Below, in pieces: positions 659-10,245 of a DNA stretch of 26,786 nucleotides (within the stretch, counting starts at the first letter, position 1; each line of letters opens with the position of its first letter). The stretch is taken from NCBI GenBank assembly GCA_027729865.1, contig JAQCBM010000001.1, forward strand, positions 1 to 26,786, given 5' to 3'. The position numbers and the translations under genes were made by a program. Under the pieces are notes generated by a model. The model was not told the origin of the DNA, searched no databases, and saw only the letters and a program-made list of their open reading frames with translations. The DNA comes from Actinomycetota bacterium. GTDB taxonomy: Bacteria > Actinomycetota > Actinomycetes > S36-B12.

Positions 659-1390
659 TTAGCGGGTGCGCAGGATGACGAACTGGAAGCGCCCCTCGAC
701 AAAGTAGGTCTTGCTGTACGCGACGGGTTCACCGGATCGGTCGTAGTGCACCTGGTCGAGGAGAATCAGAAGTTCGTCAGCAACGTGATCTTCTGCGATA
801 GGCACATCGCTGCCGCGCACGGCGTGGATCTCGGCCAGTGCACGGTTGGGAGTCAAGCCGATTCGGTCGAGCACAGCGAACACTGATCCATTGCCCAGTG
901 ATACGTCCTCACTCGCTGGAACCAGGTTCCCCGGAATAGCGTCGATGGAAATGGCCACCACTTCGCCATCGGCGAGTATCTCGCGGTGCACGGCCACGAT
1001 CTCGTCGTTGGCGTTCACGTCCAAACGTGCGCACTCGTTCTCGTCGGCCTGCCGCCGAGTGAGCGAAATCCGACGCACCTTCGCATCCAGACCAAGTTCC
1101 TCGATCGTCTCGGTGATCGAGCGCAGTTCCTGAAGACCCGATCGGATTTGGCCGCCGAAGTCCACTACGAACATGCCCGAACCGTGACGGATGTCGACCA
1201 GCCCCTGGGATTCCAGCGACTTCGCCGCAGTGCGAACTGTTACGCGGGACACCCGATAGCGCTCGCACAACTCCGCCTCGCTGGGCAGCCGGGAGCCGGG
1301 CGAGAACTCACCAGCGACGATGCGCCGGCGTAGGTCCTCGGTGATCTGCCGGGCGAGCGGGGTGCGGGGGGTTGTGGTGGAACTGGGCAT
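659..1390 (-). CDS. GntR family (HutC/UTRA subfamily) transcriptional regulator
   Basis: GntR wHTH (LPSEAELCERYRVSRVTVRTA...GSGMFV) plus C-terminal UTRA-like domain (SKTYFVEGRFQF). Start trimmed to ATG at 1390, preceded by SD GGGAGGAG; divergent from mtnA. Confidence 0.92.
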   Translation of the reverse strand: MPSSTTTPRTPLARQITEDLRRRIVAGEFSPGSRLPSEAELCERYRVSRVTVRTAAKSLESQGLVDIRHGSGMFVVDFGGQIRSGLQELRSITETIEELGLDAKVRRISLTRRQADENECARLDVNANDEIVAVHREILADGEVVAISIDAIPGNLVPASEDVSLGNGSVFAVLDRIGLTPNRALAEIHAVRGSDVPIAEDHVADELLILLDQVHYDRSGEPVAYSKTYFVEGRFQFVILRTR

Positions 1391-1424: not shown

Positions 1425-1439
1425 AGTTGTAGGACAACT
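1425..1439. promoter_or_regulatory. Palindromic operator AGTTGT-AGG-ACAACT, probable binding site of the adjacent GntR
   Basis: Perfect 6-bp inverted repeat with a 3-nt spacer in the 66-bp gntR/mtnA intergenic region. Core GTA-G-GAC fits GntR-type GT(A/C)-N0-1-(G/T)AC palindromes. Lies just downstream of a candidate -10 (TAGCCT, 1412-1417). Confidence 0.68.
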
Positions 1440-1456: not shown

Positions 1457-2497
1457 GTGTCGGAGATCCGGGCGGTTCGCTGGGATGCGCACTCGATCGT
1501 GCTCATCGATCAGACGAAGCTGCCGGCGGTCGAGACCGCTATGGAGTGCGCCACCGTCGATCAACTGGTGGACGCGATCGTCCGCCTGGTGGTTCGCGGT
1601 GCTCCGGCACTCGGCGCGGTCGGTGGATACGGCGTGGCCCTGGCGATGATCCAAGGTGAGCGCGACGGCTGGGATTCCACGCGGTTGAACGCGGAGATCG
1701 ACCGGATTCGAAATGCGCGACCCACTGCGGTGAACCTGGCGTGGGGAGTGGACCGGGTGCGTCCGTTGGTAAGTGACGGCGTGGACGCAGTACTTGCCGA
1801 AGCGCAGCGCATCGCAGATGAAGACGAAGCCGCTAATCGTGAACTCTCACGCAAGGGCGCGGACTGGATTCTCGCGAACACCACGCGTCGTCCGTTGCGG
1901 GTGTTAACCCACTGCAACACCGGATCTCTGGCAACCACCGCGTGGGGAACGGCACTGGGCATCGTGCGCGAACTCCACGGGCGCGGTGAGATCGAAATGG
2001 TTTACGCCGATGAGACGCGGCCGTTGCTACAAGGATCGCGGTTGACCTCGTGGGAACTCACCCAAGACGGAATTCCGCACGTGGTGCAGGTGGATGGCGC
2101 TGCTGCGTCCACGCTGCTGCGCGGTTTGGTGGATGTAGCGATCATCGGCGCCGATCGCATTGCGCGTAACGGCGACACCGCGAACAAGATCGGTTCGGTG
2201 GGTGTGGCACTGGGTTGTTCGGCCGCTGAGGTGCCGTTTGTGGTCGCGGCTCCGTCGTCGACAGTGGACCTGTCCACGGCCTCGGGTGAATCGATCGAGA
2301 TCGAACTGCGCGATGGCGCAGAGGTGACCGAGTTCCATGCCGAATCCGTGGCGCCGGAGGGAGCCAAAGGATTCAACCCGGCTTTCGATGTGACACCCGC
2401 GCAGTACATCTCGGCCATCGTGACCGAGCAGGGAGTCGTGGAACCAGCCGCTGGTGTGCTGGTGGACTCCCTCGTGCCGGAAGGGGAACGTCCATGA
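1457..2497 (+). CDS. mtnA: S-methyl-5-thioribose-1-phosphate isomerase (MtnA / eIF-2B-like family)
   Basis: Motifs LIDQTKLP, VRGAPALG, RPTAVNL, LTHCNTGSLAT, ETRPLLQGSRLT, GADRIARNGDTANKIG, NPAFDVTP; SD GGAGG before GTG. Confidence 0.92.
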   Translation: MSEIRAVRWDAHSIVLIDQTKLPAVETAMECATVDQLVDAIVRLVVRGAPALGAVGGYGVALAMIQGERDGWDSTRLNAEIDRIRNARPTAVNLAWGVDRVRPLVSDGVDAVLAEAQRIADEDEAANRELSRKGADWILANTTRRPLRVLTHCNTGSLATTAWGTALGIVRELHGRGEIEMVYADETRPLLQGSRLTSWELTQDGIPHVVQVDGAAASTLLRGLVDVAIIGADRIARNGDTANKIGSVGVALGCSAAEVPFVVAAPSSTVDLSTASGESIEIELRDGAEVTEFHAESVAPEGAKGFNPAFDVTPAQYISAIVTEQGVVEPAAGVLVDSLVPEGERP

Positions 2498-4482
2498 GCA
2501 ACGAAGCCATGCCAACAGCGCTGACCGAACTCGTTCAACGCTCCAACCGCATCGGAGACGACCCTTCCCTCGTTGTCTACGGAGGCGGCAACACCTCTGC
2601 TAAAGGTGTGATCGTTGATCACCTCGGCCGCGAGCAACAGGTGATGTGGGTTAAGGGATCCGGTGCGGACATGCGCGGGTCGGTTCTTTCCGACTACCCG
2701 GGTCTGCGCCTTGGCGAACTCACCGCACTGCGTGAACGCGGTGAGATGAGCGATGAGGAGATGACCGACCTCGTTACCCGTGCGCTGTTAGATCCATCCT
2801 CTCGCCGGCCATCGATCGAAACGCTGCTGCATGCGTTCTTGCCGTTCACCCACATTGACCATGTGCACGCCGATGCGATCTGTGCGCTTACCAACCACGC
2901 TGAAGGCAAGAAGATCACCCTTGAGGCGCTTGGCGAGGGATTCGCCTACGTGGACTGGCTGCGTCCGGGTTTCGAGCTCAGCAAGATCGTCGGTGAGCTC
3001 TCGCACTACGAGGGAGTAGTGCTTGCGCACCACGGGCTGATCACCTGGGGGGATTCTTCCGCTGCGTGCTACCAGCGCACTATCGACGTGGTGGATCAAG
3101 CGCGCGAGTTCGTTGCGGCCAACCGTGTTGGCGCCGGACCGCCGCCGCGCCATGACGACATCCCCGAGGACGAATTGCGTCGATTGCTGTTGCACCTGCG
3201 CGGTGCGGTGAGCGCAACGGGTCACCGAGTCCTGCGGGTGGACGAACGATTGCGTGAGGTTGCCGATCATCCGCAGGTGGACAAGATCGTGGCCGGTGGT
3301 GTGTCGAGTGCCGACCACATGTTGCGCATCAAGCCGCGCTCCGTGGTTGTTCCCTCGGTTGATCACGTGAGCTCGTCTGTTGGGGCTTACCGCGATGAGT
3401 ACCTCGCGTATGTGGAACGCAACCACGAGTTGATGCCGGAGGGTTTCGGACCGCACGATCCGATGCCGCGCGTGATGCTGGTGCCGGGCGTGGGTGCGGT
3501 GACGACCGGAACCTCAGGCAAGGACGCTGCCGTTGCCGCGGACATCGCTGTACACACGCACGACGTTGCGCGGACCGTGCTCGAGGCATTCGGAACACCC
3601 GAGCCGTTGAGTGGTCGGGAGACTTTCCGCTTCGATTACTGGCCGATGGAGCTCTACAAGCTCACGCTTAAGCCCGCGCCGGCCGAGTTCGCCGGACGAA
3701 TCGTGATCGTGACGGGTGCGGCATCAGGGATCGGTCGCGGGATCGCGCTGGAGTTGGGTGCGCGGGGGTGCTCGTTGGTCCTTGCGGACCTCGATGCCAA
3801 TGGTCTGGACGAGGTTGCAGGTTCCCTCGTTTCCGCGGGCGCGCCTGAACCCGTGGTGGTGGCCGGAGATCAGTCCGACTCGTCGGTCACCTCAGCCACG
3901 GTTCACCGTGCGGTGCGGCACTTCGGTGGGCTGGACGGCGTGGTGCTGAACGCGGGCGTGGGCGTCTCTGGGACGTTGACGGAACTGACCGACGAGCAGT
4001 GGAACACCGCACTGCAGGTGAACCTGACGAGCGCGTTCTCACTCACCCGTGAATCGATGCGCGCGATGCAAGAACAGAGTCTAGGCGGTTCCCTGGTGTT
4101 CGTTGCGAGCAAGAACGCTTTCGGTCCCGGTGCCGGCTTTGGTGCTTACTCGGTGTCCAAGGCCGGGATGATCCAACTGATGCGCATCGCAGCACTCGAA
4201 GGTGGCAAGCACCAGATCCGATCCAATGCGATCAACCCCGACGCGGTATTCGACAACTCGAAGTTGTGGGAGGGGGGCTTGCGTGAAGAGCGTGCAGCAG
4301 CCCACGGCATCGCACCGGAGGAACTCGAAGACTTCTACGCCTCACGCAACTTGCTCGGTCGCCGAGTGACCACGTCAGACGTTGCGCAGTCCGCAGCCTT
4401 CTTGCTGTCCGATCGTTCCTCGCGGACCACGGGTTCGGTCCTTACGGTGGACGGCGGGGTAGCGGTCGCGTTCCCGCGGTAG
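2494..4482 (+). CDS. Bifunctional class II aldolase / short-chain dehydrogenase (RhaD-ADH, RhaEW/YuxG-like fusion)
   Basis: N-terminal class II aldolase: YGGGNTSAK, VKGSG, RPSIETLLH, HIDHVHAD, HHGLITWG (Zn-binding His). C-terminal SDR: TGAASGIG, NAG, YSVSK. ATGA overlap with the mtnA stop. Substrate not certain. Confidence 0.86.
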   Translation: MSNEAMPTALTELVQRSNRIGDDPSLVVYGGGNTSAKGVIVDHLGREQQVMWVKGSGADMRGSVLSDYPGLRLGELTALRERGEMSDEEMTDLVTRALLDPSSRRPSIETLLHAFLPFTHIDHVHADAICALTNHAEGKKITLEALGEGFAYVDWLRPGFELSKIVGELSHYEGVVLAHHGLITWGDSSAACYQRTIDVVDQAREFVAANRVGAGPPPRHDDIPEDELRRLLLHLRGAVSATGHRVLRVDERLREVADHPQVDKIVAGGVSSADHMLRIKPRSVVVPSVDHVSSSVGAYRDEYLAYVERNHELMPEGFGPHDPMPRVMLVPGVGAVTTGTSGKDAAVAADIAVHTHDVARTVLEAFGTPEPLSGRETFRFDYWPMELYKLTLKPAPAEFAGRIVIVTGAASGIGRGIALELGARGCSLVLADLDANGLDEVAGSLVSAGAPEPVVVAGDQSDSSVTSATVHRAVRHFGGLDGVVLNAGVGVSGTLTELTDEQWNTALQVNLTSAFSLTRESMRAMQEQSLGGSLVFVASKNAFGPGAGFGAYSVSKAGMIQLMRIAALEGGKHQIRSNAINPDAVFDNSKLWEGGLREERAAAHGIAPEELEDFYASRNLLGRRVTTSDVAQSAAFLLSDRSSRTTGSVLTVDGGVAVAFPR

Positions 4483-4488
4483 TTGCTC

Positions 4489-5592
4489 CTACTGGCGTAG
4501 GGCTTCGACCATCGCACGCGAGTTTGTTGCGAGATCACCGCGGTGGAGCGCTCCGCCGATGAGAAGCGCGACGTTATCTCCGTAGAACTCGGTGAGTTCA
4601 CCGAGGCGGTCCAACGTCATGCCACCGCCCGGGCTTGGCCACGATCGCGCCAGGTTGCCCAGGGGTGCGTGGCATAGGTCCTTGATCTGCGCGCATTCGG
4701 CGGGTGAGAACGAGAATCGGCCGCCGTAGTTCGGAAAGATCGAGATGTCCGCTCCCGCTAGGCGCATCAAGGTCCCGAAAAGGATGCCGTGATCGATGCC
4801 CTGATCAGGGTTGACAACGTTCGATCCCAGGAACGATGGATGCGCCATGATCGGTAAGGCCAGGGAATCGTCGTCGGCCAGCATGCGCATCGCGTCGAAT
4901 CCCGACACCCCAGGAAGCACCAAGAGTGCACCAGCGCCGGCCTCCTTGGCCTCGTGCGCGGCATCGACGATCCGATCGGCGGGAACGTTCAAACTCGGCA
5001 TGTAGAGCGCGTTGGTTCCGGCTTGTTCACGTGCTTGATTGACGTGCTCTGCGATGACTCGAGTGCGTTCCTTCCAACGCGCCCACGGTTGATCGGCAAG
5101 ACCGTGGTCGTCTTTGATGATGTGGAAGCCAGCGCGGGTGATGGTCGCGGCCATCTCGCCGAGTCCTTGCGGATCGGTGCCCATCGGCTTCACCGCGGTG
5201 CAGACAAGTGGACCGGTGGGGGCATCGACGAGCGCGCGAAGTCCGTCGATGCCAAAGCGCGGACCACGAAAATCCGCGAGGTAGGAATCCGGCAAACGTA
5301 GGCCGGTGACGCGAACGCCCGGGAAGAGCGACACATTCCCCCACAGCACATTCAGCAGTTGAGTGATGCCGCCGCCGGCAACGCCGGGGTTGTAGGAAAT
5401 CGTGACGTTGTTTCCGCTGATGTTCTCAATGCGACCGACGACGGTTTCCTGGATCCACTCCGGAGCCAGATCGAACGGGAATTCGATGGTCTGCTCGACG
5501 CGGATCGCATCGGCGACTTCCCTGGAATCTCCAACCGAGATTCGGTAGTCGACAACGATGCGGTCTGCTGAGCCCGACGCGCTCGTTGTCAT
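4489..5592 (-). CDS. RuBisCO-like protein (form IV), resembling the R. rubrum 5-methylthioribulose-1-phosphate 1,3-isomerase type
   Basis: VEQTIE, NVLWGNVSL, GPRFGIDGLR, AVKPMG, IKDDHGLADQ (KDDH rather than KDDE), AHP, FPNYGGRF, PGGGM, LIGG. 367 aa, shorter than a true RbcL. ATGA-coupled to the upstream transketolase subunit. Confidence 0.9.
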   Translation of the reverse strand: MTTSASGSADRIVVDYRISVGDSREVADAIRVEQTIEFPFDLAPEWIQETVVGRIENISGNNVTISYNPGVAGGGITQLLNVLWGNVSLFPGVRVTGLRLPDSYLADFRGPRFGIDGLRALVDAPTGPLVCTAVKPMGTDPQGLGEMAATITRAGFHIIKDDHGLADQPWARWKERTRVIAEHVNQAREQAGTNALYMPSLNVPADRIVDAAHEAKEAGAGALLVLPGVSGFDAMRMLADDDSLALPIMAHPSFLGSNVVNPDQGIDHGILFGTLMRLAGADISIFPNYGGRFSFSPAECAQIKDLCHAPLGNLARSWPSPGGGMTLDRLGELTEFYGDNVALLIGGALHRGDLATNSRAMVEALRQ

Positions 5593-6629
5593 AGTGCTTC
5601 GACCTTGGCGCTGCTGTGGGTGGCGGCAACGCGAACCGGTGCGAGGTCGGCTGCATCGATACCGAACGTGCGTCCAAGGGCTTGTTCGGCTGTGCGCACT
5701 AAAGACATGGCGTCGAGGTCGTACTCGCGCAGCAGGTAGGCCTGCGACGCGCCATGTGCGTAGGTGTCGGGCAGCCCGATGCGGTGCAGCGGAGCTGCAA
5801 TGCCGTTCTCGGCCATAACCTCGGCTACCGCCGAACCCAAGCCACCGGTGATCAGGTGGTTCTCCATGGTGATCACACCGCTACGCGCACTACGCAGCGC
5901 TGTGAGCACGGTGGGATCGGTGAAGGGCTTGAGGGTTGAGACGTGCAGATGCGTGACTCTTGCGCCTGCATCTTGCAGCGCAGGAATGGCACGAAGTGCC
6001 TCTTCGGTTTCGATCCCGGACGTGAGCACCACGAGGTCCGCCGGATCCTCGATCGAGCTACCGGCGACCGACAGCACTCGTGCGGTGTTGAAGCGCATCG
6101 GCTCGGGGAACAGGCGCGGCACTTCGCCACGCAGCATGCGGATGTAGACCGGACCGTCGATGGCGTGCGCAACATCAAGCACGCTCTCCACCTCGGTGGC
6201 GTCGCCGGTTTCCAGGATCGTCATGTTCGGGATAGTTCGCATCACTGCAACGTCGTCGATCGCCTGGTGGGTCACGCCACCGGGAGTGGTGATACCGGGC
6301 AGGAAGCCGACCAGGCGCACCTTCAGGTTCGGGTACGCGATGGACATCTGCAGTTGATCGAGTGGGCGGCGGTACAAGAACACTGCGAACGTGTGCAGCC
6401 ACGGTTCGAAACCTTCGCGAGCGAGCCCAGCAGCGAAGCCGAGCATGTTCTGTTCGGCCATGCCCATGGAGAAGAAGCGCTCGGGGTAGGTGTCGCGCCA
6501 CTTGCCGACTTCGCACGAGTTGGTGAGGTCCGCGCTGAGCACCACAACCTCGGGCTTATCGGCCGACCAACGAATGAAGTTCTCTACGTGTGGGCGGCTG
6601 ACGATCTCTACGTCCGTTTTCGCGCTCAT
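5589..6629 (-). CDS. Transketolase-family C-terminal (pyrimidine-binding + C-terminal domain) subunit
   Basis: LSADL, PERFFSMGMAEQNM, THQAIDD, GPVYIRMLR, TLKPF, ENHLITGGLGSAVAE; ATGA overlaps at both ends. Confidence 0.9.
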   Translation of the reverse strand: MSAKTDVEIVSRPHVENFIRWSADKPEVVVLSADLTNSCEVGKWRDTYPERFFSMGMAEQNMLGFAAGLAREGFEPWLHTFAVFLYRRPLDQLQMSIAYPNLKVRLVGFLPGITTPGGVTHQAIDDVAVMRTIPNMTILETGDATEVESVLDVAHAIDGPVYIRMLRGEVPRLFPEPMRFNTARVLSVAGSSIEDPADLVVLTSGIETEEALRAIPALQDAGARVTHLHVSTLKPFTDPTVLTALRSARSGVITMENHLITGGLGSAVAEVMAENGIAAPLHRIGLPDTYAHGASQAYLLREYDLDAMSLVRTAEQALGRTFGIDAADLAPVRVAATHSSAKVEAL

Positions 6630-7537
6630 GAAGTGGCTCCGATCAGAACGTCGTCGTAGAACTTCTGGTACTCGGCTCGTTCCTCAGGACCGGTGAAGCG
6701 CAGGTAGTGCAAAACAGGTCGACGATCATTGAGCAGCGGCACACCGCGCGCGGGATCGGTATACGCGAGGACGAAGTGCGGTTTGCCGGTGGGGCGTTCG
6801 AGCGATGAGGTGAGAGCCGCGATGTCGTGGCCATCGACCGAGTCCACACTCGCACCGAATGCCTTGAGTTTGGTTGCTAGCGGTTCGATTGTCATGACCG
6901 AATCCATCGGGCCATCGCACTGCGCGCGATTTACATCGACCACCACGCGCACCGTGTCGAGTCGATAGAAGGCAAGTGCCTGGATTGCTTCCCAGGTTTG
7001 CCCTTCTTGGAATTCACCGTCGCTCATGAACACGAACGTGCGACCGGTCTCCTTCTTCAAGCGCCGACCCAGGGCGATGCCGCCGGCGGTGGACAGCGCT
7101 TGCGCGAGGGACCCTGTGGTGGTTTCGAAGCCGGGCGAGTGTTCGGCGCCGATCATCTCGACGGTGGAACCGTCTTTGTTGAACTGATCGAGTGCGGCCT
7201 CGTCCAGGCGCCCGGCCTCGATGAGTGCTGCGTAGACCACCAGGGCGTAGTGCGCGGGGGAGACGATCAACCGGTCGAGGTCTGGACCCGGCTCGCCGTG
7301 GAATACCCCGCCGGATACGCGCGGGGCGTCTGGTCCGGGAACAGCCTCGATGGCAGGCGGGTGCAGCGGCCCGTCGGTGGGGGCGAGCTTGAGCACCGAG
7401 GCGTAGAGGGCGGCGAGCAGTTCGGCTGAGGAACAGGCTTGGCTGAGATAGCCGCCGTTGTTGGCCAGCACGTGGGCCAGGACCCGGCGGCGGATGCCCG
7501 CGGCCATGAGTGTGGGTTCGATTGTCGATTGAGGCAC
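6626..7537 (-). CDS. Transketolase-family N-terminal (ThDP-binding) subunit
   Basis: TGSLAQALS, ThDP motif [13 protein letters not shown]...DVN, VDGHD. Start set at GTG 7537 because a -35/-10 pair sits 6 nt upstream; ATG 7507 is the alternative. The longer ORF-track start at 7837 overlaps xylB. Confidence 0.87.
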
Positions 7538-7615: not shown

Positions 7616-9049
7616 ATGGCAGCAGAAAAACTCGTCGCGGGGGTAGATACCTCGACCCAGTCGGTGAAGGTGGTCGTGCGCGATGCGCAGACCGGGGCGT
7701 GGGTGCGCGAAGGTCGGGCGGCGCACCCCGATGGCACCGAGGTGGACCCCGGTGTCTGGTGGCAGGCGTTCGTGCAGGCGTGCTCGGGCGGATTGCTCGA
7801 AGGAGTGTCCGCGATCTCGGTTGCCGGCCAACAGCACGGCATGGTCGCTCTGGATGAAACCGGCGCTGTTGTGCGACCTGCGTTGTTGTGGAACGACACC
7901 CGCTCGGCTGCCGACGCAACTGAACTCACGGCCGAACTCGGTGGACCCGCAGCGTGGGCCGAAGCAGTGGGCAGCGTTCCCCTCGCCGCATTCACCGTCA
8001 GCAAGGTGCGGTGGATGGCGCGCAATGAACCGGACAACGCAGCGCGCACGTCAACGATCATGCTTCCGCACGACTACCTGACCTGGATGCTCGCCGATCG
8101 CCCGAATGACGCTGTTACCGATCGCGGCGATGCCAGTGGAACCGGCTATTGGTCGCCGGCAACCGGTGAGTACCGCCGCGACATTCTGATCGCGGCTCTT
8201 GGTCACGATGTTTCTTTGCCGCGCGTTGCGGGACCTTTCGAAGTGGTGGGCGAACTTGGTGGTCAAGCCCGCGCGCTACTGGGAATCAGCGGTAGCCATC
8301 CGATCCTCTTGGGACCGGGAACCGGCGACAACATGGGTGCGGCCTTGTCCTTGGGAATCGGTCCCGGTGACGTAGTGGTGTCTTTGGGAACCTCCGGAAC
8401 AGCCTTCGCAGGATCGGATGCGCCCACTGCGGATCCGACCGGACTTGTCGCAGGATTCGCCGATGCGAGTGGACGTTTCCTGCCGCTGGTGTGCACGTTG
8501 AATGCCGCCCGAGTGCTCACGAGCACCGCGGAATTGCTGGGCGTGGATATGAACGAGTTCGCACGACTCGCTCTGAGCGCCGCACCTGGTGCCAGTGGGT
8601 TGACGATGCTGCCGTACTTCGACGGTGAGCGGACACCGAACCTTCCTGATGCGCGCGGCTCGCTGCACGGCATCAGCCGCGACAATCTGACACCTCCCAA
8701 CATCGCGCGAGCGGCAGTCGAAGGCATGCTCGGTGGCCTCGCCGACGCGGTTGATGCGCTGGTGGATGTGGGTGTGGAACCCCGGCGCGTTCTGCTAGTC
8801 GGTGGTGCTGCTGCGAATCCTGCTGTGGTCGAGGTTGCAGCGACGTTGGTCGATGCCCCGGTGGAAGTTCCGCCGGCCGGCGAATACGTGGCCGACGGGG
8901 CTGCCCGCCAAGCCGCATGGGTTCTGTTGGGGGACGGTATGCCGGCGTGGCCGGCTGTGCGTGAAGGTGAGACAGATCGGCGCGACGCGAACCCGGTGTC
9001 GCAGGTTCGGCTCCAGTACCGAGATGCCCGGGAGGCTTTGTACTCGTGA
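7616..9049 (+). CDS. xylB: FGGY-family carbohydrate kinase, xylulokinase-like
   Basis: [52 protein letters not shown]. Start trimmed to ATG 7616 ([11 protein letters not shown]). Confidence 0.85.
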
Positions 9050-10245
9050 TCGAAGGGGGAGGACTCTCGCGGGTACTGCGCGCACTGCACGCCGCGGGAG
9101 CCCTGACCCGCTCCGATCTCGGTTCCTTGACCGGTTTGAATCGCAGCACTGTTGCCACGATCGTCAATGAACTCGTCGCCGCAGGCGTAGTCGAAGAAGG
9201 CGCCGGTGCTTCCGGTGGGGTGGGTCGGCCGTCACTAGTGGTGCGGGCGGTCCCCGATTCGGTTGCCGTCATCGGATGGGACATCCGTGCGGATTCCAGT
9301 ACCGCAGTAGTGGAAGGAATCGGGGGACAGATCCTGCATCGATGGTCGAAGGCGCATCGTCGCGGCTCCACCGATCCGTATGAGGTTGCCGCGCGCGTGG
9401 TCGCGGGGAGTTCGCAGATTGCTGAGGAACTGCCCGACCACGTGCTGTGGGTTGGCGTGGGGTGCGCGCTGCCCGGGATCATCGACCCCGGAGGTGACCC
9501 GCCGCGCAGCACCATCCACCGCGCGCCAACACTTGGCTGGGTGGATACGCCCTTCGGCGTGATCTTGTCCGAAGCGATGAGCGAGCAGTTCGGTTCCCAG
9601 GTTCCGGTTGTGCTCGGCAACGACGCGAACCTCGGTGCGATGGCCGAGTGGACACGCGGCGCCGGAAAGCGAAGCCGCGTGATGGTGTTCGTCTCGGGCG
9701 ATGTAGGTATCGGTGGTGGCGTGATCGTCGACGGTGAACCGTTGACGGGCGCATCCGGATTTGCCGGCGAGATCGGTCACATTCGCTTCGATCCCAATGG
9801 TGCTCCGTGTCGATGCGGTTCGCGCGGATGCTGGGAGACGGTGATTGGTCTGACCACCATCGTGTCCGCCGCTGGACTGGATCCTCTCAAGGCAGGAATC
9901 GACGACGTCCTATCGGCTGCGCAGGCAGGTGATGCGACGTGTCAATCGGCGCTCGCTGCCGCTGCCCGCGCGGTGGGCCAAGGTTTGGCACCGGTGGTGA
10001 ACATGGTGAACCCCGACACCATCGTGTTAGCCGGGCATCTCGAGGTTCTCTTGGAGCACTACCGACACACGATCATCGAGGAATTGCGCTTCACCCTGTC
10101 TCGTGAAAGCACGGATATCCGCGTCGTAGGACCAGCTCTTGGGTCCGACAGCATCGTGGTAGGTGCCGCCGAACTCGCCTTTGAGCGAGCACTCGATCGA
10201 CCGCAAAGGTGGCTGACTGCGCCGGAATCACTCCGAAGCGAATAA
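9046..10245 (+). CDS. ROK-family transcriptional repressor (XylR-like)
   Basis: N-terminal HTH ([17 protein letters not shown]), [20 protein letters not shown]...[10 protein letters not shown] Zn motif; GTGA overlap with the xylB stop. Confidence 0.9.

Follow-up and report, generated by a model that had tools for sequence, protein, structure and literature searches.

Comparative genomics supports an mtnA-linked RhaE-type aldolase–dehydrogenase fusion as a putative variant of the dihydroxyacetone phosphate shunt

What does a protein that resembles the bifunctional rhamnose enzyme RhaEW do directly behind mtnA? The question is raised by a 26,786-nucleotide stretch (contig JAQCBM010000001.1, positions 1 to 26,786; hereafter, the window) of an actinobacterial metagenome-assembled genome (MAG; GC 61%, 2.41 Mb, 416 contigs, 82% complete), in which mtnA is followed by a gene encoding an aldolase fused to a short-chain dehydrogenase/reductase (SDR). 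MtnA is an S-methyl-5-thioribose-1-phosphate isomerase that probably also serves as a 5-deoxyribose-1-phosphate isomerase. 5'-Deoxyadenosine and 5'-methylthioadenosine (MTA) are unavoidable, inhibitory by-products of S-adenosylmethionine (SAM) chemistry, and the routes of their disposal are still being charted. Comparative genomics supports the mtnA-linked fusion as a putative variant of one such known pathway, the dihydroxyacetone phosphate (DHAP) shunt; it is likely, on gene context and sequence, that the RhaE-type aldolase domain cleaves 5-deoxy- or 5-methylthio-ribulose-1-phosphate and that the SDR domain converts the resulting aldehyde.

Linkage of mtnA to an aldolase–dehydrogenase fusion

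The TGA stop codon of mtnA (2495-2497) overlaps the ATG of the fusion (2494) in an ATGA, as an original prediction made from the letters of the window had read it, and a Shine-Dalgarno-like stretch (GGAAGGGG) stands immediately 5' of the overlap. Scanning one genome for each species yielded 80 related loci whose fusions are 54-94% identical to that of the window, from Nanopelagicales/acI, other Actinomycetota, Acidimicrobiales, and Chloroflexota (Limnocylindrales). Neighbours were identified by ORF calling, clustering, and tblastn on the fetched loci, with cluster representatives scanned against NCBIfam profiles; because the gene caller trims starts crudely, only gene presence and order were used. 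mtnA lies directly upstream of the fusion in 66 of the 67 related loci with at least 1.1 kb of upstream sequence, making it the defining, conserved context of the clade, and about 60 of the 72 loci that contain both genes show a four-nucleotide ATGA, GTGA, or TTGA overlap. Such recurrence argues that the adjacency is not due to chance; mtnA and the fusion probably constitute a translationally coupled two-gene unit. The sole one of these 67 loci lacking an upstream mtnA is a short contig (L097:1-4841) of a MAG binned as Rubricoccaceae.

The MtnA of the window exceeds the TIGR00512 cut-off and retains the catalytic pair Cys153/Asp233 when aligned with Bacillus subtilis MtnA (2yrf); its best relatives in the PDB are the MtnA structures 1t9k and 2yrf, and it is the sole IF-2B-family match recovered by tblastn from its own genome. 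The original prediction had also pointed to NKIGSV in place of the usual NKIGTY as a possible specificity shift. The motif is present as described, and 64 of the 73 MtnA sequences that adjoin a fusion carry NKIGS[VL]. The two substitutions differ in distribution: Ser replaces Thr in roughly 68 of the 73 fusion-linked sequences, as against Thr in 25 of 28 MtnA sequences from genomes of the same class without the fusion, while Val or Leu for Tyr is also found in the nearest MtnA relatives without a fusion. Ser for Thr is, in these alignments, characteristic of the MtnA clade linked to the fusion. One unpublished genome (G014) was included when MtnA was tallied across class genomes; no locus, motif count, or other statement made here depends on it.

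The fusion architecture was confirmed by Pfam, with Aldolase_II at aa 19-204 and adh_short at aa 403-656. The aldolase domain matches PDB 3m4r, a stand-alone RhaE-type domain (E 3.4e-38; Foldseek TM(target) 0.89), and retains the metal and catalytic residues Glu109, His123, His125, and His180; the three histidines are invariant in a 50-sequence family alignment and Glu109 is found in at least 90%, with Asp at this position in actinobacterial RhaEW. The SDR domain carries the full classical set (TGAASGIG at 407-414, NAG, Ser539, Tyr552, Lys556), together with an Asp432 at the end of beta-2 that points to an NAD-type cofactor site; its Foldseek matches are NAD(P)-bound SDRs with TM(target) of about 0.9. 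Both domains are thus intact in their metal-binding and catalytic residues. The AlphaFold model of the whole protein (pLDDT 93.3, pTM 0.91) includes a middle region (aa 216-395) with the conserved residues R236, D274-H275, Y382-W383, E386, and K389. No PDB counterpart of this region was seen among the Foldseek matches listed, which comprise 3m4r and SDRs of ~250 residues, nor did the Foldseek PDB matches include a full-length fusion structure, only separate SDRs and 3m4r. The middle region could mediate coupling of the two domains.

Relationship to the rhamnose enzyme RhaEW

None of the NCBIfam equivalog cut-offs for RhaEW-type models is reached by the fusion (TIGR02632, 546.6 against 567.75; NF006190, 599.8 against 1014). 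No rhamnose isomerase or rhamnulokinase gene occurs among the main ORFs scanned across the 26.8-kb window, in agreement with the original prediction; the window's only FGGY kinase scores as XylB, and rhamnulokinase is not among its listed matches. Neither rha nor fuc genes were found in any of the 80 related loci.

The same genome does contain a complete, canonical rhaI-rhaEW-rhaB cluster on a separate contig (C195; L009:2488-17563). This cluster comprises an ABC transporter with a RhaS-type binding protein, two Zn-dehydrogenase-like genes, RhaI (TIGR02635, 625 vs 531), RhaEW (TIGR02632, 1005.8 vs 567.75; NF006188, 1282 vs 1152), and a rhamnulokinase-like gene; its RhaEW is 38% identical to the fusion of the window. 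Across 300 sampled genomes of the class, all matches to the window fusion were 35-40% identical, and in the 29 class loci fetched nearly all fusions were 66-81% identical to the C195 copy, with rhaI and rhaB flanking the RhaEW gene in 25 of the 29. The original prediction had regarded rha genes elsewhere in the genome as evidence against its reading. Such genes are indeed present, but because they are accompanied by a RhaEW of their own they argue for that reading, which is strengthened as a result.

Phylogenetic analysis (FastTree with 149-178 family members; IQ-TREE under LG+C20 with 53) places all mtnA-linked relatives in one clade (clade I, support 99-100), apart from the rha-linked clade; clade I also takes in the mtnA-linked metagenome sequences L153, L154/L178, and L155. 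The earlier claim that the fusion is not the rhamnose enzyme is therefore borne out by its separate clade and by the genome's own RhaEW in a rha cluster: by cut-off, context, and clade, the window fusion is not RhaEW proper. At 83 positions clade I differs from actinobacterial RhaEW; at most of these, clades I and II (the latter described below) show the majority family state and RhaEW is derived (e.g., E109D), and only a handful of states, V124 and C130 among them, are confined to clade I.

A second, distant group of fusions (clade II; L165, L169, and L199, all metagenome contigs) is also mtnA-linked, at 37-39% identity to the window protein. In one of these (L165:4145-7995) the gene order is MTAP (TIGR01694, 297 vs 275), MtnA, fusion, and this fusion passes TIGR02632 (700 bits vs 568) while standing behind mtnP-mtnA; therefore, the model does not separate the functions, and its curated RhaEW cut-off is an annotation trap. 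A further branch, of NF006194 type (L215:4039-7082, L188, L197, L201, L203, L204, L206), is preceded by an LsrF-like 3-hydroxy-5-phosphonooxypentane-2,4-dione thiolase (NF006081, 491 vs 297). Because its branches are variously linked to mtnA, to rha genes, or to the LsrF-like thiolase, the aldolase-SDR family appears to be functionally diverse.

Several further members of the family were observed. Some NF006194-type loci also contain a sigma-54 activator and an ECF sigma factor. A third fusion type (L029; G257:C234) occurs in an actinomycete genome that also holds RhaEW; it is 34-36% identical to both the window fusion and RhaEW, groups with P0172, and has no rha or mtnA neighbours within its 1.5-kb flanks. 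A metagenome scan for the sister group P0136 returned no close relatives of P0136, and recovered more mtnA-linked fusions as well as other contexts.

Neighbouring genes, substrate supply and layout of the window

Three contexts recur around the mtnA-fusion pair. The window type (context A) consists of a GntR regulator gene, mtnA-fusion, and genes for a RuBisCO-like protein (RLP) and transketolase (TK). The acI type (context B) contains a Bmp-type nucleoside ABC transporter, an S-methyl-5'-thioinosine (MTI) phosphorylase (NF006599, 254 vs 223), and a 5'-deoxyadenosine/MTA-deaminase-like amidohydrolase, then a Cupin_5 protein, an SDR, and mtnA-fusion, often with MtnB (TIGR03328), MtnC (TIGR01691), and ARD. 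In context C, a GntR gene and mtnA-fusion are joined by a sugar ABC transporter, MtnK (TIGR01767, 389 vs 275), a SnoaL-like protein, and TK-RLP. Thirty-three loci extend at least 4 kb on either side of the fusion. All 33 contain mtnA; 18 have RLP/TK, 7 have MtnB/C/D, 8 have neither, and none has both, and since mtnA is found throughout while the other routes vary, MtnA and the fusion form the constant core. MTI phosphorylase occurs in 14 of the 33 and MtnK in 8, one or the other adjoining the pair in 22. RLP with the split transketolase, on the one hand, and MtnB-C-D, on the other, look like alternative add-on branches for 5-methylthioribulose-1-phosphate; the split transketolase travels with RLP in the related loci (L039-L118).

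The source genome appears able to supply the substrate of MtnA. On contig C39 (L246:1384-4656), cytidine deaminase, MTI phosphorylase, deaminase, Cupin_5, SDR, and Bmp genes reproduce the upstream module of context B; the MTI phosphorylase (NF006599, 247.8 vs 223) lies beside the 5'-deoxyadenosine/MTA-deaminase-like amidohydrolase, so that a supplier of 5-methylthio- or 5-deoxy-ribose-1-phosphate is present. MTI phosphorylase, deaminase, Cupin_5 (DUF985), and SDR make up a module conserved between C39 and acI loci such as L082 and L118. MtnB, MtnC, MtnD, and MtnK were not found in the source genome with the queries used, and its two other class II aldolase-family genes are of decarboxylase or "hypothetical" type, neither FucA- nor MtnB-like.

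In five acI-type genomes (1.0-1.5 Mb) reached through the loci, the Aldolase_II family is represented by the fusion alone and the IF-2B family by MtnA alone; three of these five yielded no RuBisCO-like protein. With neither RLP nor another aldolase, the fusion is thus the only recognizable consumer of the MtnA product in those three genomes. Class genomes without the fusion instead place mtnA beside MtnB (with MtnC/D) or beside a stand-alone FucA/ribulose-1-phosphate-aldolase-like gene. Stand-alone aldolases next to mtnA, which the original prediction had taken to be the norm, are therefore found in relatives, and their presence where the fusion is absent suggests that the fusion occupies the place of Ald2/DrdA. 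A search of five genomes, including the source genome, returned no member of the spermidine-synthase family (the control was positive in 10 of 14 model genomes), and the same five each contain 5-9 radical-SAM genes. These data point to 5'-deoxyadenosine as one of the main sources within the cell, no less likely than MTA; nucleosides imported by the adjacent transporters are set apart from this weighing.

Coordinates of the features in the window are collected in Table 1.

Table 1. Features of the mtnA-fusion locus, in positions of the window
Feature	Position	Strand	Evidence or remark
GntR/HutC-type regulator (GntR HTH + UTRA)	659-1390	-	Pfam GntR 75 bits, UTRA 71.5 bits
Palindrome AGTTGTAGGACAACT, perfect 6-3-6	1425-1439		In the 66-bp GntR/mtnA intergenic region
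mtnA	1457-2497	+	TIGR00512 395.3 bits vs cut-off 279
NKIGSV motif of MtnA (N243-V248; usual NK[IV]GT[YF])	2183-2200	+	
Aldolase-SDR fusion, 662 aa	2494-4482	+	mtnA-linked clade I of RhaEW-like family; Pfam
RhaE-type class II aldolase domain, aa 9-209	2518-3120	+	Aligned to PDB 3m4r
Fusion middle region, aa 216-395	3139-3678	+	Confidently folded, conserved residues
Classical SDR domain, C-terminal, aa 399-658	3688-4467	+	Pfam adh_short_C2 166 bits
RuBisCO-like protein (RLP)	4489-5592	-	Pfam RuBisCO_large 63 bits; convergent with fusion
Split transketolase-like pair	5589-7537 (C-half 5589-6629, N-half 6626-about 7537)	-	Pfam Transket_pyr/Transketolase_C, Transketolase_N
XylB-type FGGY kinase (about 7640-9049) and ROK regulator	about 7640-10245	+	TIGR01312 404 vs 380

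The GntR/UTRA gene, whose start was read from the sequence, is divergent from mtnA and likely encodes the regulator of the cluster; a divergent GntR homolog lies upstream of mtnA-fusion in 15 of the 33 long-flank loci. The palindrome in the intervening region may be an operator, although a weak candidate: it has one match in the window, at least one match arose in 30 of 100 shuffles at up to two mismatches, and a single copy is not significant alone. A promoter scan of the window returned nothing, and terminator-like matches were near chance level. On opposite strands, the fusion and the RLP gene end with their stop codons six nucleotides apart (4483-4488), and no terminator-like hairpin was found between them. 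The split transketolase pair is co-transcribed with RLP, and the remaining main ORFs scanned in the window are unrelated housekeeping genes.

The XylB-type kinase and ROK genes, divergent from the transketolase genes, were considered as part of the system and rejected as unproven. They are found with the cluster in close relatives alone, whose fusions are 77% or more identical, and in these the unrelated genes that come next are shared as well; at greater distance, RLP/TK loci carry MtnK and an ABC transporter in place of the XylB-like kinase and ROK. Xylose isomerase was not found in the source genome. E. coli XylB also phosphorylates 1-deoxyxylulose.

A proposed route, its alternatives and known systems

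The unit would complete the degradation of the ribose part of 5'-deoxyadenosine and MTA. The deaminase and MTI phosphorylase encoded on C39 would yield 5-deoxy- or 5-methylthio-ribose-1-phosphate, which MtnA would isomerize to the corresponding ribulose-1-phosphate; the N-terminal, metal-dependent RhaE-type aldolase domain would then release DHAP and acetaldehyde or 2-(methylthio)acetaldehyde, whereupon the attached SDR domain, of NAD type, would immediately convert the aldehyde. If RhaEW is a guide, the product may be the acid (acetate or methylthioacetate) with formation of NADH; the alternative is the alcohol, by reduction. The fusion would thereby replace both the small, FucA-like Ald2/DrdA and the aldehyde-converting enzyme of the shunt by non-orthologous displacement, with RLP and the split transketolase, or MtnB-C-D in other lineages, serving as alternative add-on branches for the methylthio intermediate. 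The substrate, products, and direction of the fusion's reaction are all inferred from gene context and sequence.

Several points weigh against this route. For every member of the clade, the function is a prediction of this same kind. Linkage alone is no proof that the fusion acts on the product of MtnA, because MtnB-C-D or RLP/TK, in the loci that have them, need MtnA anyway. RhaEW cleaves an L-threo (3R,4S) ketose-1-phosphate, whereas the products of MtnA are D-erythro (3R,4R), as are the substrates of FucA and DrdA (PMC6079011); therefore, a different C4 preference must be assumed for the fusion. Residues that would set the mtnA-linked clades I and II apart were sought and no convergent signature was found, so a specificity shift is unsupported by the residues of the fusion. 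Aldehyde dehydrogenation would be unusual chemistry for an SDR, and the direction of its reaction is not readable from sequence. Finally, the argument that the fusion is the only consumer of the MtnA product rests on MAGs, which may be incomplete, and the source genome is itself 82% complete.

Part of this evidence also bears on other assignments. The fusion may act at another step, its SDR oxidizing or epimerizing the sugar phosphate first or handling an aldehyde from the RLP and transketolase branch, or the reaction at its aldolase fold may be epimerization, dehydration, or decarboxylation; MtnB dehydratase, AraD epimerase, and decarboxylases are likewise built on the class II aldolase fold, and both the stereochemical mismatch with RhaE substrates and the conserved, confidently folded middle region are compatible with such roles. 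So is the finding that RhaEW gave no DHAP without NAD+ (PMC3870299), from which it follows that its two activities are coupled. We nonetheless consider another step rather unlikely: the nearest characterized relatives are aldolases, the full Glu/His3 set is kept, and the fusion and mtnA occur in many loci and genomes without RLP/TK and MtnB-C-D, on which the fusion therefore cannot depend. Nucleoside-ribose catabolism would make different use of the same genes. The MtnA homolog would turn ribose-1-phosphate, released by purine or pyrimidine nucleoside phosphorylases, into ribulose-1-phosphate, and the fusion would yield DHAP and glycolaldehyde, then glycolate. A Bmp-type nucleoside ABC transporter, pyrimidine-nucleoside phosphorylase, and cytidine deaminase in acI-type loci fit this assignment, as do the Ser/Val for Thr/Tyr in the NKIGTY motif of the MtnA clade and the existence of ribulose-1-phosphate aldolase as a known class II aldolase function (NF053831 is among the matches beside mtnA). 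A DeoB-type phosphopentomutase was not found in the source genome, though its absence counts for little at 82% completeness and with other mutase families in existence. However, MtnA lies well over the methylthioribose-1-phosphate isomerase equivalog cut-off, and MTI phosphorylase, MtnK, MtnB/C/D, and the RuBisCO-like protein are all tied to 5-methylthio or 5-deoxy sugars, which leaves a ribose route quite improbable.

That the fusion is instead a second rhamnulose-1-phosphate (or fuculose-1-phosphate) aldolase/lactaldehyde dehydrogenase, its place after mtnA a historical accident, is very improbable indeed. RhaEW-like models are its best NCBIfam matches, TIGR02632 is missed by 21 bits only, and relatives are annotated in their sources as rhamnulose-1-phosphate aldolase/alcohol dehydrogenase; yet a clade II fusion behind mtnP-mtnA (L165) passes that same model, which is thus not discriminating. 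The genome already has RhaEW in a full rha cluster, the window clade is separate from RhaEW, the 80 related loci hold no rha or fuc gene, and an accident would have to be reconciled with an mtnA overlap conserved across two phyla.

If the shunt reading is true, the fusion assigns the aldehyde-converting step of the pathway, as a domain joined to a non-orthologous aldolase. A fuller version of this proposal is tentative and falls somewhat short of an even chance: one polypeptide would cleave the substrate and oxidize the aldehyde, gaining NADH and giving acetate or methylthioacetate, with methylthioacetate instead of methylthioethanol as the final sulfur product; it would form the constant core of SAM by-product disposal in acI/Nanopelagicales and Chloroflexota, extend through clade II to other bacteria, and be mislabeled by curated models. 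The bacteria that carry it rank among the most abundant in fresh water and have tiny genomes, some of which yielded no class II aldolase-family gene other than the fusion. Where the fusion is named as the rhamnose enzyme, metabolic reconstructions would wrongly predict rhamnose use and miss the salvage of SAM by-products. The paralog pair in the source genome (C195 RhaEW and the mtnA-linked fusion) offers a built-in control for specificity.

No description of an mtnA-linked aldolase-SDR fusion was found in the openly accessible literature that was searched; the closest described systems are the DHAP shunt, RhaEW, and the MTA-isoprenoid shunt. The DHAP shunt runs through MtnP or MtnK, MtnA, and Ald2/DrdA to an alcohol dehydrogenase still unassigned, and the enzyme that converts its aldehyde has been called unknown (PMC13474568, PMC5893883). 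As described in Rhodospirillum rubrum, Rhodopseudomonas palustris, extraintestinal pathogenic E. coli (ExPEC), and Bacillus thuringiensis, it shares with the proposed route a phosphorylase or kinase, MtnA, and a metal-dependent aldolase of class II fold, and in both cases the aldolase gene is clustered with mtnA, here through the ATGA overlap and in 66 of 67 loci. The shunt variants enter by MtnP or MtnN+MtnK and proceed through MtnA/DrdI and Ald2/DrdA, whereas entry here would be by deaminase and MTI phosphorylase. Their aldolase is FucA-like and about 210 aa long, unlike the RhaE-type domain of the window; and while the shunt is without an assigned aldehyde enzyme, the window fusion carries an SDR predicted for that step. 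Because its aldolase is of the RhaE lineage and fused to a dehydrogenase, the fusion is not an orthologous member of the shunt.

RhaEW/YuxG (TIGR02632; Chloroflexus aurantiacus, Bacillus subtilis) shares all three parts of the fusion (RhaE aldolase, middle region, SDR), as well as the catalytic residues and the NAD-type cofactor site, with 36-40% identity between the actinobacterial RhaEW and the window protein. RhaEW forms DHAP and lactate with NAD+, is inactive with NADH, and has been described as "always" encoded within the rha locus (PMC3870299). By contrast, the fusion clade is in a rha locus in none of the 80 cases and behind mtnA in nearly all that could be assessed, and its expected substrate has the opposite C4 configuration to that of RhaEW.

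The MTA-isoprenoid shunt of R. rubrum and R. palustris (DeepYkr RLP and cupin methylsulfurylase) resembles the window in having RLP beside mtnA; it differs in its cupin, which has no adjacent counterpart in the window, where a remodeled split transketolase stands in its place, and in that the aldolase branch of the window would be the fusion. In R. palustris, an Ald2 branch and an RLP branch operate in parallel (PMC5893883), and there, as here, an mtnA-linked aldolase coexists with a RuBisCO-like-protein branch. With RLP beside mtnA, the product of MtnA in the window therefore probably feeds two branches, as it does in R. palustris.

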